DNA of 64,000 nt from contig AP026124.1 in assembly GCA_030295235.1 (NCBI GenBank), positions 992,001 to 1,056,000 on the forward strand. The letters are read 5' to 3'. Positions 6,214 to 13,275 of the stretch are shown in pieces. The notes below the pieces were generated by a model, which was not told the DNA's origin, did not search any database, and saw nothing but the letters and a program-made list of their open reading frames with translations. Made by a program: the position numbers and the translations under genes. Numbering within the stretch: the stretch's first letter is position 1; the number at the start of each line of letters is the position of its first letter. Source of the stretch: Fistulifera solaris. Taxonomy: Eukaryota.

Positions 6214-6482
6214 CTTTGCCTTCGTTTTTGGCCACGGGCGAAGAGGAAAAACCAAAATATTGAAATATTGCAGTTCTTCCATATAAGCAATCGTTTATTT
6301 CTAAAGAATGATATTATTCATCGGGATTTCGAAATGGGTGTGGTGTCTTTTTCTTGTGCAATGTTGGAGTCAACACGTCCGGTCGTCAGCCGTTCGGAAA
6401 ACGGCGTTACCCATCCCGTCCGGTATCGCTGGATCAAAGAAGTCACCACCATTCAAGAATCACGAATTGTGGGACTCGCATC
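6214..6482 (+). repeat. Left copy of ~269-bp host duplication flanking the retrotransposon (contains a truncated carboxypeptidase 5' end, ATG 6308)
   Basis: ctttgccttcg...gggactcgcatc recurs at 13010-13275 with only single-base indel differences. Confidence 0.95.
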
Positions 6483-6498
6483 GATGGGTCTGATAAAC

Positions 6499-6685
6499 AC
6501 AGTTAATCCTATTCACGGCAGCAATAGAATGAAATAGAGGCATGCAATAGATGAATTACGTTACACCTTCTAATCATGGAGATGACCACCATGTGTTGCA
6601 TGTTGCGACCGCGCAACGCGAGGTACGACGGCTCATCCGTGAACGGCCGTACATCCGTCAACCGTAGCATGACCGGATTCGCTGT
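6499..6685 (-). repeat. Extra LTR copy A (187 bp)
   Basis: acagttaatcc...ggattcgctgt; one substitution versus copy B; followed in element sense by the same 15 nt (6484-6498) that follow the 5' LTR. Confidence 0.9.
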
Positions 6686-6872
6686 ACAGTTAATCCTATT
6701 CACGGCAGCAATAGAATGAAATAGAGGCATGCAATAGATGAATTACGTTACACCTTCTAATCATGGAGATGACCACCATGTGTTGCATGTTGCGACCGCT
6801 CAACGCGAGGTACGACGGCTCATCCGTGAACGGCCGTACATCCGTCAACCGTAGCATGACCGGATTCGCTGT
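6686..6872 (-). repeat. 3' LTR (copy B, 187 bp)
   Basis: Head-to-tail with copy A at the junction ctgt|acag; lies ~170 bp downstream of the pol stop. Confidence 0.9.
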
Positions 6873-7041
6873 GTCCCCGGGAGCATGTCGCGAACTGGTT
6901 CTCACATGATCAGACTGCAGAGGCCCCTTCATTTTCAAATGGGGGCGGGTTGTTTTAACCCATGACATGTAAAATATGTAAAATAAATGAAACTCTCTCA
7001 CTGTCGACACCATCGGGCGACAATCAGCACAAGAAATAACA

Positions 7042-10000
7042 TCACCACAACACCCGAGAGCTGAGATCACGAAGACGCGGACCTCCCAACAACTTGGTGA
7101 GAATGTCACTCAAATTGCCTCGCCATCTTCCTTCGTCAATCGAATAATACCAGCAGCAATCGCTTCACGAACTTTGTGATACGCCACCGCATTAGCTTTC
7201 TTTTTCAAAGGACTCTCAGGGTGTGTCGTATTCTTGACCACGGAATCATTATCGCAGAAAACAGAAGTTGGCCCTTCAATCGGTACTCCCATCATCCCGG
7301 GAGTTTATAACGCAAACCTTCAATCATCTCGACGGCAATTTTCAAAGCTACTATCTCACTTCCAAATGTAGAAGTCTCAACAGTTGTCTGGCGCTTTGAG
7401 AACCAAAGAATAGGAGCCCTGTTTACAAAAAACAAGCACGCCACTATGTGAACGTCGAGTATCCCTACAACCGGCATGATCCGCATCGCAGAAACATGAA
7501 ATGAGCACAGGCTCACCACGCTCCTCCCGGTTTGTCTGGTGGAATCACTTCAGCTGCATCCGGATAAAACTCGCCTCCAGTCCCTTCTTATGAACCGTCT
7601 GTCATCAATGAAAGGCCTGGTATCATCAAAAACCAAAGTAGAACGGTCGTGAGATTTCAAGTAAGCAAATATGTGAAACACTTGATCAAGATGACCTTCT
7701 CTAGCTTGCGCTAGGTACCTCGACAACATCGAGACCGGTACAATGATATCCAAGCGTCCCAACTCGCATAACCATCGTAACACGCCAATCAACCCCTGGA
7801 AATAATTCTGACGCCGATCGTCCAATTCTGGTGAAACATCCAATTCCGGACGGTATCCTGCACTAAATGGAGTCGCCCGCTTTCTTTGGTAGATCTAAAT
7901 GAACTTTGTTTAGCTCAGTCTCGACCTCGCTGATAGCCTTTTTGGTATACTTTTCTGACGAGAGTGCCCAACGGTCCTTTGTTGGGTCTTCAGCATCATC
8001 AATATGCCATTTTTTAACGTCGGGCTCCAAGATATAGTTCCGGCTCTTCCGCTTTCCGTCTTTAAACTGAAAGATTTGTGCAATTTCGAACATCTTATCA
8101 GGATCGATACTTTGTCCTACAAGATCATCCACGACGCCAACAAATACTCGTATTACTTGGTGCCATCCGGCTTCAGGGCTGGCCGCATCCAGATGTCAGG
8201 ATCAGCCTTACACGGTATAGCCAAGTTCCCGTAACTTAGATGCGAGGGTGTGAACGGAATCGAAATCCGGCTGACGGAAGTCCATACAAAGCACGAACAA
8301 TCTTAGCCGGGCGACCCTGGTTCGAACCAAATTCCAACCCTGTCCTATACCAGTATTTCTCTTTGATCGGCCGTTAGATAAGCTGCTCTGAATATCGGCA
8401 GACAACACTTTCAAGTTATTCAAAGCAGCAAGCAGAAAGAACAGTCTTACGGAATCTCTCGACACGACAGATGAAAACGTATTCTCCTTCGGTTCATCGA
8501 CTTTGTGACCGTCTGCCACAAACCGTGCCTTGCGGACTAAGGTGATCTTGACGTCGAATATCATGTGACACTTGATCTCCTTATGACCCACAGGAATCAA
8601 ATCCTCGGCATTGAATTCGAAGGCAATCGGAAACATTCTTCATCTCTTTCTCAATCGCTTTCCGCCAGTAATCCGTACCGGTATCGCCGATCTATCTGTA
8701 AGGCTTCCGCCACAGTCTTTGGCAATCGAACTCCATACTTGTGAGTTCTCTTCCAGTATCTGTTCTTGGTCTTTGCAATAATCCGATCCTTTTTCCCGAA
8801 TCACGGGGAACCCACCAGGCGAACGCCGGTTCGTCGTCGATCTTGGCTCCAACTGCATAAAGCGCAACTTGTACTGGATGGGACTCCTTGATATCCGACA
8901 AACGGACCCAATCTGAGCTTCCATCTTTCCATTCGCACAGCAGTTCCCAGCCCCTGGTGGTAATCTTCCGACTAGGATTGCTGCCAGTTCCGTCAGGCAG
9001 AAAACCGTTCTCCTTGGATACTGCATGACCATTTTTCCGATGATCAACAATCTCCGATAATACTGCAAACATCCGACCCTCATCATCAATCTGAGCTTAA
9101 AGATTCTCAGCAATAATGTTAGCACTGTACGAGTCAACCGTCCCATCCGGAAACTCAATCTCGTGAATATCGCGGTGTCTAGGATTGGATTCTCATTCGC
9201 TGAACCTATCGGGTATACCGTCATCGTTTTTAACCCTCCGCTTGACGACACCATGCCTCAGCTCACCACCGACTAGGAGTTGAATCTCTGAGTTAATGTA
9301 GTGATCGTGACGCTTCCGGAGTATAGTCATCCAAATCTGGACGAGGTTCCTCTGGCTCTGGCTGTTCATCCGCATCCACGTCAAATAGATCAGCAGGCAT
9401 TGAAACGTCTGGTAGCAACTCTTCGTCGAGTTCCGCTGGTGTCCCCGATCTTTCGTTCAATGATAGCGGTCAGTTCATCGACTCTAGCCTTCATTGCATC
9501 GGTTCCGAAATCCTGGGCATCCACCGCCCACACCGTGGATCTCACAATCGGTTGACAAGACCTTGGGAGAATCCAGTAACAATCACCAGATCCGTATTCT
9601 CCAGCTGGCCCTAACCAACGACCTAGATGATGCTCGCCATCTTCGTCCAGATACCACACCCAGTCATACCACTCATGCTGAGCATAGGTACTGATATCGG
9701 GTGTGTAGCCCTTAACGTGCTCAAAAGGTGTCCGCCCTTGCAATGATGGAATGCCCAAAGCTGTAAAACATCGAATGCGCTGACCAAGTCGCCAAGGTAC
9801 GGCCAGAGCCGCCGTGGCTAACGCTTTGTCGTCCACTTCCGAATCCCACGTTTGATTTCTCGCACTTCAGATTCAGCTCGGTTCTGCCACCAGGAGAATG
9901 GCTGCGTGAAGGTATGATTGATGTGATAACGAGACACCACCTTCTCCCACTCAGTGTTCCCGGTTCCACTAGCTCCTTGTTCCCTGGAGTTGTCAGTAAT

Positions 10001-11192
10001 CAGCTTCTCCGGTATCCCATCCTCCTGGACCAGATTCACCAATCCATGACTTGCAAGACGCTTTGACTTCATCGGCCAGAACCGACCGTAACCTTTTCCG
10101 TTGGTAGTCAACTGAGCACAAGTTTCTCCACCCAAGCCTTTATCCTTGAAGAAAACACTATCTGAATACCATCTTCCTCTTAGCGTTGGATGCCTGAGGT
10201 ACGGTTGTGATTTCATTCGTCGTTGAACTGGATGTACCACTTTCCGAATTCCTTTCTGTGTTGTGGTTCTGATGGTATTAGAGGCTATCGTTGCCGATTC
10301 CCCATCGCTTACCCAACACAACTGGCGACAATGCCGGCTTTGGTGCTTCCTTCCTAAACGCCGCAACCTGTCTCGTGTCAGACCAGTCCCCGGAATCTTG
10401 ATACCGCTCATGACAGAAACCACAGATGTCTGAAAATAGTAGACCTTTTGCCAATCCGCAACAATGAAGTCCCCGTTCTTGGAGTCCACGATCCACCATG
10501 TCCCCCGGGCGGAATGCAAAGGGTCAAAGTCATACCGGGTTGTCAGCAATCACCAGTGCCGATATCTTACGACGAACAGGGTATGTTGGGTAAAGAAAGT
10601 CCACATCTTTAGCCGCCTGCTCAGCTCTTGAAAACGTGAGGATGAAGGATCCCACTCGTCCTCCCGACGTCACATAGATACGAGATGCATTACGTAACTC
10701 GGTGTCAGTTGGTAGGCCGAAGTGAAGCCTGAAATAACACCGTCCATAGAAAGAGGAATGACAAGTTCCGGGTTGCTCAGGAGGGCGCAAAATGATAGAG
10801 TGTCGTGATTCGGGAACATACTGAGTCGGACTGTCTTCCACGACATGACCAAAGTCACGGATCTGGTTCGGAGATAACAGACTAGAAGCTAACCGGTCCC
10901 CAAAATACAACGCCTGTCCAAAAATCAAAAGAATAACTTCGCCAGTTTTGGGATTGTCATAAGCGGTAGCACATGTGGCAATCGGAATGTCGGACAACGG
11001 TTGATACTCAGGGCTGTACGGAGAGACTTGTACCGTTTCCCCACTAGCTTCAAGTAAAACCATATTCCGTCCAGCAACGACCGTATCCGCATGGCTATCG
11101 AGCTCACATCGATCAAAAGAGCCAGCATCGTCCAGGACATCCATCCTATAGACGTGCCGTTCAACACAATGAATGTGTCGGAGCGACCCTAG
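7042..11192 (-). CDS. pol: Copia Pol polyprotein (protease, integrase, chromo-like domain, RT, RNase H), broken by many 1-nt frameshifts
   Basis: PR LDSHADT. IN YSD..ITDN..QNRAESE. RT CHMIFDVK..RKARFVADGH, LSADIQ, xVDD near 8125-8135. RNase H FCDADHAG, VETSTFGSE, FCDNDSV, NLSDILTK..RVLW* (stop 7042-7044). Confidence 0.92.
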
Positions 11193-12590
11193 TCAGAGAC
11201 TGGGGTTACCCTTGCTCTTCTTTGCCTTGTGTGCCGCACGACCAAACTGTTCTCCCGGCATTTTTCATTGGAACTTCTTCATCCGGTGGCACTACTGCTA
11301 TCATCGGCTTTAGCTGCTGCTGCTTTAGCAGCTGCGGCCGCTTTCTTCTGTTGCTTCTTGTTTTTCTTCTTTGCAGCCCGTGCGGTTTTCACGTCTGCCT
11401 TCTGACTTTCCGTCAAAGCGTGGAAAGCGCCGGCTGCCAGTTACCGCCTTTGACCTCAACGGACAGCTTCTTCCATTCAGCTGCTGAAGACGTCTTTGCA
11501 TCACCACCTGCGGTCTGCATTCCCGCGACCTGACGACCTTTTCTTCTTACTCTGAGAACTAGACAAGCGATTGTTCGAGTTCACAGTGGAAAAATACTTC
11601 TGGGTTGCATCAAGTCTTCCATCAGCTCGTTGTTCCCGTAGACATGCAGCTTTGCTTGAGACAAGACATCACACGTGATCCCGCTCAAGAAATCTTGCAC
11701 CTTTTTCTCGACTCAGGAACAGGTTCGCCACAGTAAGAAAGTTCGTTGTGAGCCTGCAAGTGCGCAGTGATGTAGTGATCGAAGGTGTAGTCACGCTGAG
11801 GTCCTGCGACACTGGGCGTCCGCAATGTCATTGTAAGCTTTGGTCTTACGGTTCAATCTTCCATTTGCAGTGTCAGTCTGTCCTTTTAAGGTAAGGATAG
11901 CCCTTCTTCCATCCTTTTGGGTATCAAACTGCTTGATGTAAGTCCATCCGGGCCCATCTTGCACCAAAGCCTTGAATTCATTCCAAACTCGCAAGTTATC
12001 AGCTTGATAATGATCCCCAGAAAGTACGGTACAATGGTGAAAGCGTGCATCAAAAGTCGGATATGCTGCATTGAGTTCTGCTGGTGTGACTTCTTCCTTA
12101 TCACGGAAAACATAGTCCAACGGAATTTCTGCTGCACCTCGAATGCTACCAAAGTAAGTTTGCACAGCTTCCCAAAACTTGACCCACTCAGACATCTTTT
12201 TTCAACTTCGGGCGGCTTCTGCACATCTTGATCCTTCATGGACGCTGCATATGCCTTCAATTCCGCCACACGACGGCCGAAGTGTTGCTCAATTCTGCAA
12301 CTGTGAGGTGTGCAGGATTCGGATTTTCAACACCCATCCGAAGTCTGTAGAATCGCCCCACTTTCTCACAATCTTCAAGTCTTCAACAGTCTTAGGTGTT
12401 GGGTGCACTCTCACATTTGCCGGCCTGTTTGGATGAGGATACTTCAAAATTGAAGAAATTGTCTGTGCAATTGTGTCCTCCTCCATTGCCAACAAATCTG
12501 CTATGTTCGCAATGTTATTCCATGCAAGTTCAGCCCTGGTTGCGCGTTAATACCCAATCGAGTCTCCAAGAGGTTGTTCCATGAAGCCAT
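11193..12590 (-). CDS. gag: Copia Gag (frameshifted in this sequence)
   Basis: ATG at 12590 (MASWNNLLETRLG). Fragments WVKFWEAVQTYFGSIRGAAEIPLDYVFR, YQADNLRVWNEFK, DGRRAILTLK; basic C-terminus QFGRAAHKAKKSKGNPSL* ending at TGA 11193-11195. Confidence 0.8.
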
Positions 12591-12809
12591 GTTGAGAGAC
12601 CACTTCTTCTTTTAAAACAGGACAAAGAGAAATTGCAAGAGATTGAGCGTTTTCGCTCGTGATGTACTGTGACTCGAAGAGTAGTAGTACAGATTGAACG
12701 TAGAGTAAAATTGCTTGCAAAAACGAAAATGTCTCCGCAGCAGCAATTGTCAACTTGTCTTGTGCTGTTGTGGTTCAAATCGAACTCCTTCGACCTGAAT
12801 CAAAGCTGT

Positions 12810-12824
12810 ATGGGTCTGATAAAC
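12810..12824 (-). promoter_or_regulatory. Primer binding site GTTTATCAGACCCAT (half-tRNA type)
   Basis: Directly follows the 5' LTR. Its complement A-TGGGT-CT-GAT-AA-AC has tRNA anticodon-arm geometry. Confidence 0.7.
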
Positions 12825-13009
12825 ACAGTTAATCCTATTCACGGCAGCAATAGAATGAAATAGAGGCATGCAATAGATGAATTACGTTACACCTTCTAAT
12901 CATGGAGATGACCACCATGTGTTGCATGTTGCGACCGCTAACGCGAGGTACGACGGCTCATCCGTAACGGCCGTACATCCGTCAACCGTAGCATGACCGG
13001 ATTCGCTGT
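12825..13009 (-). repeat. 5' LTR (copy C, 185 bp as read)
   Basis: Matches copy B apart from two 1-nt deletions. Confidence 0.9.
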
Positions 13010-13275
13010 CTTTGCCTTCGTTTTTGGCCACGGCGAAAGAGGAAAAACCAAAATATTGAAATATTGCAGTTCTTCCATATAAGCAATCGTTTATTTCTAA
13101 AGAATGATATTATTCATCGGGATTTCGAAATGGGTGTGGTGTCTTTTTCTTGTGCAATGTTGGAGTCAACACGTCCGGTCGTCGCCGTTCGGAAAACGGC
13201 GTTACCCATCCGTCCGGTATCGCTGGATCAAAGAAGTCACCACCATTCAAGAATACGAATTGTGGGACTCGCATC
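13010..13275 (+). repeat. Right copy of the host duplication (continues into the full carboxypeptidase gene)
   Basis: Direct repeat of 6214-6482. Confidence 0.95.

Follow-up and report, generated by a model that had tools for sequence, protein, structure and literature searches.

The strategy of separating gag from pol by an in-frame UGA is already known from retrotransposons of fungi. Tca2 (pCal), a Ty1/copia element of Candida albicans, has the arrangement gag-UGA-pol, and its pol is made from the gag-UGA-pol RNA; tested in yeast by itself, its junction produced no readthrough, and it contains a minor promoter (PMC2194720). The fission-yeast Ty3/gypsy elements Tj1, Tcry1 and Tosmo1-3 carry an in-frame TGA-CT at the gag-pol junction (bioRxiv 2022.12.06.519325). 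The type II readthrough signal is given as UGA followed by CUA or CGG together with a stem-loop located 7-12 nt downstream (PMC3159437), and UGA-CUAG is stated to drive readthrough in mammalian reporters (PMC4132726). Plant and fly copia elements set the Gag:Pol ratio by splicing (PMC5580714), and copia-like elements from diatoms are designated CoDi (PMC2806351). The main text of the CoDi paper does not mention readthrough, and in a literature search that took in few subscription papers no account of diatom retrotransposons using readthrough came up.

The element described here is located on the minus strand of the window, that is, the whole stretch of 64,000 nucleotides that was analysed, and is a young copia element in which LTRs flank gag and pol. 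Repeat comparison defined a 5' LTR of about 186 nt (12825-13009), with the ends ACAG...CTGT instead of TG...CA, and a 3' LTR (6686-6872) that is 98.9% identical to it, the differences being gaps. The pol gene (7042..11192), which comprises the protease, integrase, reverse transcriptase and RNase H region and ends in TGA-T at 7044-7042, was assigned by an RVT_2 match at 8211-8639 that lies below the curated cut-off and by tblastn to the intact pol of the relatives L057 and L076. The cut-off is passed by L076 and by L100, and in L100 an rve match precedes RVT_2. The direct LTRs, the copia-type reverse transcriptase and the order protease-integrase-reverse transcriptase-RNase H place the element in the Ty1/copia group. 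The gene at the gag position (11196..12590, with a presumed start at ATG 12590) matches the upstream ORFs of L057, L074 and L076 in tblastn with E-values of 5e-30 to 9e-33, and the window is colinear with intact gag-position and pol proteins of relatives, for pol with those of L057 and L076. The assignment as gag relies on position, size and homology among the relatives, and no Pfam gag domain was matched in the window or in the relatives.

Both genes are frame-broken in the assembly, where they are split by many indels of 1-2 nt, and an in-frame gag over its full length is consequently demonstrated in the relatives rather than in the window copy. At the places of these indels, contigs built from the short reads of run X1 disagree with the window at full depth in 11 of 12 cases among the matches listed, and one gag contig of 1575 nt shows 23 gaps relative to the window. 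This points to assembly error as the source of the indels, and the X1 contigs may derive from other copies. No difference was found at 11193-11195 among the X1 matches listed. Run X1, which was available as contigs and is RNA by our guess, showed no joint inside the element, an observation that was not counted as evidence on splicing.

The surroundings of the element have several peculiarities. Instead of a short target-site repeat, a directly duplicated segment of a host gene, about 269 nt long, lies on its two sides (6214-6482 and 13010-13275), and contigs of runs X3 and X4 continue past 6482 into the far-flank sequence, which suggests that an empty allele exists. An extra tandem LTR copy is found at 6499-6685; the segment 6484-6872 thus holds two tandem 3' LTRs, and behind the last one stand 15 nt identical to those that directly follow the 5' LTR. 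The segment looks like the remnant of a solo LTR or the product of recombination. The LTRs of the window as well as of L034, L038, L043-L045, L047, L050 and L052 have inverted ends that differ from TG...CA (ACAG...CTGT, CGAA...TTCG and CAAG...CTTG); three CoDi families without TG/CA ends are reported in PMC2806351. A GTTTATCA(G)ACCC-like word lies 3' of the 5' LTR, at the place of the primer binding site, in the window (about 12812-12824) and in L035-L042, L045 and L049.

The host genome contains full-length silicon transporter matches (PF03842, best E-value 3.5e-222), so that the host is most likely a diatom, such genes being typical of diatoms, not exclusive to them; these matches agree with the diatom host that defines CoDi elements. 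In the window, TGA ends 10 of 31 long host frames, with C as the next base in 1 of the 10, and the pol of the element itself also ends in TGA. A genome-wide reassignment of UGA was rejected on these grounds; the host uses UGA as a normal stop, and any recoding would be local. The proposal in the initial annotation that the junction implies UGA recoding in this alga thus holds in the sense of site-specific leaky termination, and not in the sense of a changed code. A search of 6400-13100 with Rfam, at E-values up to 5, found no SECIS-family match, although an unusual SECIS could be missed by it; three chance-level Rfam matches were obtained, none of them at the junction. A bacterial promoter scan, a method not applicable to this host, gave no match.

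At the gag/pol junction the minus strand reads ...AAC CCC AGT CTC TGA CTA GGG TCG... The in-frame UGA between gag and protease (11193..11195) is the candidate readthrough codon, and the four bases 3' of it, CUAG (11189..11192), correspond to the leaky context described in PMC4132726 and PMC3159437. Past the stop, the frame remains open as LGSLRHIHCVERHVYRMDV... up to LDSHADT (11082..11102), the active-site motif of the protease, which is conserved in 19 database homologues. The catalytic Asp codon lies at 11099-11097, and the Pfam search of the window gave no match for the motif region. The first AUG 3' of the stop in the pol frame (11142..11144), a rival start, is located 16 codons downstream of the stop and 15 codons upstream of the catalytic Asp, with no AUG between it and the stop. 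The UGA-CUAG with an open frame leading into LDSHADT, as first proposed, is borne out, the frame being open over the 31 codons that follow the stop.

A DNA search of the genome found three copies of the family, 100, 96 and 91% identical over the junction, and the sequence TGA CTA GGG is present in all three. Because the stop and its context are identical in the three copies, the stop was judged not to be a chance event. Between the motif NA.EQFGR at the end of gag and the stop, the sister copies are free of indels, and their LTR pairs are 98-99% identical. Such near-identical LTRs, combined with the shared stop, indicate recent transposition of the family with the stop already in place.

A protein search of the same genome gave 36 matches, 30 of which were retrieved. 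Among them are other, divergent families with TGA ahead of the protease, followed by CTGG in nine copies of one family and in three of another; further junctions read TGA-CAGA (one copy), TGA-CGGT (one copy) and TGA-GGAC (three copies). Indels interrupt the frame between TGA and protease in several copies of these other families. A CDSNADT copia family (L038, L039, L045 and L020) apparently has gag and pol in different frames and is a possible frameshift type within the same genome, with indels that make the frames uncertain.

Relatives from metagenomes extend the comparison, and the best 80 of 181 confirmed relatives were analysed. The protease motif pattern matched 77 of the 80 loci; L109, L119 and L120 were missed and left out of the junction census. 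An upstream gag frame of at least 300 codons is found in 44 of the best 80, and among these a single in-frame stop separates gag from pol in 33, more than one stop in 1, whereas 3 have a single ORF and 7 are shifted. Grouped at 80% protease identity, they form 28 clusters, with one in-frame stop in 22, a single ORF in 2 and a shift in 4. Three decayed elements of an otherwise single-ORF clade, in which the stop lies inside gag (L107, L108 and L116), were dropped from the 22; in the remaining clusters the stop is TGA in 19 of 19 and TGA-C in 17 of 19, compared with an off-frame baseline of 53% TGA among stops (5327 of 10095) and of C as the next base in 22% of these (1148 of 5327), and with TGA-C at 1 of the 10 host frames of the window that end in TGA. 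The relatives share ancestry and the cluster counts are not independent, so that simple binomial values overstate the case. Where C follows, the next codons in the relatives include CUG, CGG and CUC. TGA-A is present in L084 and also in L057, which is one of the two relatives that stand closest.

Intact relatives consist of a gag frame of 450-530 codons, one in-frame TGA and a long pol frame; in L076, L084 and L095 the gag frames have 472-529 codons and more than 1100 codons are open past the protease motif. The concern raised at the outset that polishing might shift gag and pol out of frame is answered by this layout. A single-ORF clade (L100, L123 and L131) is related to the TGA elements. 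L122, counted among the 19 clusters, has a TGA-CGC junction inside this otherwise single-ORF clade, and its stop may be a product of decay or a readthrough stop that arose separately. The protease tree is a quick version built on 144 columns with many open forks, and the number of stop origins is beyond its reach. A scan of viral contigs gave seven pattern matches, none of which was confirmed.

We further analyzed the RNA 3' of the stop by folding. A stem-loop is predicted on the minus strand at 11156..11187, with an inner 7-bp stem (11180-11174/11168-11162) and a weak outer 4-bp stem (GUCG/CGGC), and represents the best fold of the isolated 42 nt after the stop (-12.0 kcal/mol). The inner stem appears in three of four fold windows in the window copy and in all four for each sister copy. 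When longer stretches are folded, the outer stem disappears and a second predicted stem-loop (11123..11159), which contains ATG 11144 and competes with it, takes shape. The region 11120-11210 folds with a z-score of -3.69 (1 of 200 shuffles as good), the 45 nt after the stop with -1.9 (7 of 200) and the 70 nt with -2.5 (2 of 200). Position 11163 forms G.U in the window copy; the two sisters and run X1 have G-C there, a change that is compatible and not covariation; within the family of three copies no covariation was found for this hairpin. The stem-loop at 11187-11156 postulated at the outset is therefore retained as a prediction, the best fold of the first 42 nt, while its outer part does not persist in longer fold windows.

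Two further observations concern the same region. Longer folds place the stop itself in a hairpin with upstream gag sequence (11181-11211), which would be unwound by the arriving ribosome. Conservation of the junction as a sign of RNA constraint was considered and rejected: the 96-nt run without substitutions that covers the junction is the second longest between L034 and L035, others measure 107, 94 and 94 nt, and similar runs are found in reverse transcriptase/RNase H.

A different hairpin, of 13 bp and starting 7 nt after the stop, is predicted in a sister clade (27 sequences, 91.2% of cells paired). The covarying hairpin that had been sought among related diatom elements is thus found here, and not in the window family. 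One pair is C:G in 19 of the 27 sequences and U:A in the other 8, with no mismatch; it switched five times on the tree, which holds 25 of the 27 sequences (L109 and L119 are in the alignment and not in the tree), and at least four of the switches are forced by strong branches. The two-sided change count is reached by 2 of 500 shuffles and the number of such pairs by 75 of 500, in a test whose structure was read from the same 27 sequences. In 25 elements, the 60 nt after the stop have z-scores below -2 in 10 cases and a mean of -1.85, lower than at any other of the 15 offsets. Families B, E and F of the same genome show nothing unusual in the folding of the RNA past the stop, and outside the sister clade the TGA lineages fold no better than single-ORF elements (median z -1.8 versus -1.4, P 0.12). 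A universal 3' hairpin, which is absent or weak in several lineages, was rejected. On these results, the 3' stem is taken as real in the sister clade, plausible in the window family and not universal.

The main competing explanation is a separate start of pol at AUG 11144, where ribosomes would either reinitiate once they have terminated gag or begin on a shorter mRNA from an internal promoter. The position of this AUG speaks for it, as do a Met at a similar place, 4-5 codons past the stop, in most of the large sister clade and the minor promoter at the junction of Tca2 (PMC2194720). A separate start requires no shared frame, yet 22 of the 28 clusters are in frame, and it leaves TGA-C unexplained. 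We surveyed the spacer in 51 loci with TGA at most 70 codons from the catalytic Asp: 17 different spacings between 22 and 65 codons occur, all in frame, and 8 of the 51 loci have no usable Met (none, or a single one at most 6 codons from the Asp). In L094 the conserved Met position reads GTG, which retains the hairpin pair. Spacer changes are mainly synonymous in L065/L072 (14 versus 5 nonsynonymous) and L070/L082 (6 versus 1), where L072, L070 and L082 have no usable AUG in the spacer, and not mainly synonymous in L076/L078 (8 versus 9), L078/L081 (2 versus 4) and L055/L057 (14 versus 17); judged by these substitutions, the spacer is evolving like protein even in the two AUG-less pairs. Free Pol would also require a packaging route other than the Gag-Pol fusion. 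Taken together, we consider a separate start unlikely.

A minor splice that removes the stop, with the AG of TGACTAG (11190-11189) as acceptor, is less probable still. The pyrimidine-rich stretch before this AG resembles an acceptor, but between stop and motif no AG position relative to the stop is common to more than 7 of 26 sister-clade members, so that a conserved acceptor is lacking in that clade. In 10 of the 51 TGA loci, no in-frame GT-AG intron within 300 nt can span the stop. The shortest in-frame options in the window are 12 and 21 nt long, and usual introns are far larger. Splicing sets the ratio in plant and fly copia, but there it yields gag from a single ORF, the opposite of what is needed here (PMC5580714). 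The loci without a usable Met, the coding constraint without AUG, the unconserved AG and the loci without an intron imply that restart and splicing fail as general routes across the relatives; of the spliced or separate pol mRNA feared in the initial annotation, a restart at 11144 is the part that may still apply to the window family.

That the stop is a nonsense mutation or an assembly error in a dead single-ORF element is highly improbable. The many assembly indels and the related single-ORF clade would suit such an origin, as would a tandem-duplicated copy of another own-genome family (L017/L018; L046, G000 C33; a 2.3-kb duplicate) in which TCA replaces TGA; in that copy, however, the active-site motif is also altered, DLH replacing DSH. 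The same stop in all three copies with near-identical LTRs and the same layout in intact relatives with pol frames of about 1100 codons argue against decay. Decoding of UGA as selenocysteine or by a changed genetic code, which the invariable UGA in the 19 clusters might recall, is the least credible explanation given the host frames that end in TGA and the negative SECIS search.

Programmed UGA readthrough is, on sequence grounds, the likely and best reading of the gag-pol junction. The single in-frame UGA is kept by the sisters and by most intact relatives, which makes occasional readthrough the likely source of the enzymes, and the leaky UGA-C context accompanies it. The initial annotation had proposed this reading and had named a sense codon in sister copies, a frame offset and a pol mRNA of its own as findings that would speak against it; none of these appears to hold for the window family, and the alignment of relatives that it called for retained the TGA in all family copies and all 19 clusters. 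The UGA represents the inherited end of gag, in frame with pol, in a diatom-type Ty1/copia retrotransposon. One full-length mRNA driven by the LTR would be translated, and most ribosomes would terminate at the UGA and release Gag of about 465 codons. In a few percent of the events, a near-cognate tRNA would decode the UGA, aided by C at +4 (as CUAG in the window family and as CUG, CGG or CUC in relatives) and probably by the 3' stem-loop. The resulting Gag-X-Pol would be packaged and cleave itself, and readthrough would set the excess of Gag over Pol.

A likely mechanism for the Gag/Pol balance in many diatom copia elements, which we did not find spelled out in the literature searched, can thus be named. 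For annotation, the stop at this junction should not be counted as the mark of a dead element. The junction, for which the sister clade supplies a version with a compensatory hairpin, is also a compact natural cassette with which stop codon readthrough could be measured in diatoms. With somewhat more confidence than doubt, we propose a broader reading, a large diatom copia radiation built on an alphavirus-like type II signal (here UGA-C plus a covarying stem-loop 7 nt downstream) that has switched between single-ORF, readthrough and frameshift types and would provide the first natural, testable readthrough cassette for diatom ribosomes.

A comparison with the known systems reveals both shared and distinct features. 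Tca2 is likewise a copia element whose gag and pol share a frame that a UGA interrupts; its spacer is purine-rich and 8 nt long and a pseudoknot is predicted there, whereas the diatom-type lineage of the window has UGA-C(UAG) and simple hairpins. Tj1, Tcry1 and Tosmo1-3 share the in-frame TGA followed by CT and the presence of single-ORF relatives nearby. They are gypsy elements of fungal hosts with a strict GAA-TGA-CT, while the diatom elements belong to copia; in these the codon that precedes the stop varies, and the stop is followed by C and then by variable bases. The type II signals of alphaviruses, furoviruses and the mammalian UGA-CUAG genes have the same stop and the same next codon, CUA (CUG, CGG and CUC in the relatives), and the stem of the sister clade lies at the corresponding distance of 7 nt. 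Readthrough at type II signals is measured and that of the diatom elements is inferred from sequence, and the diatom hairpins are short, local and lineage-specific.
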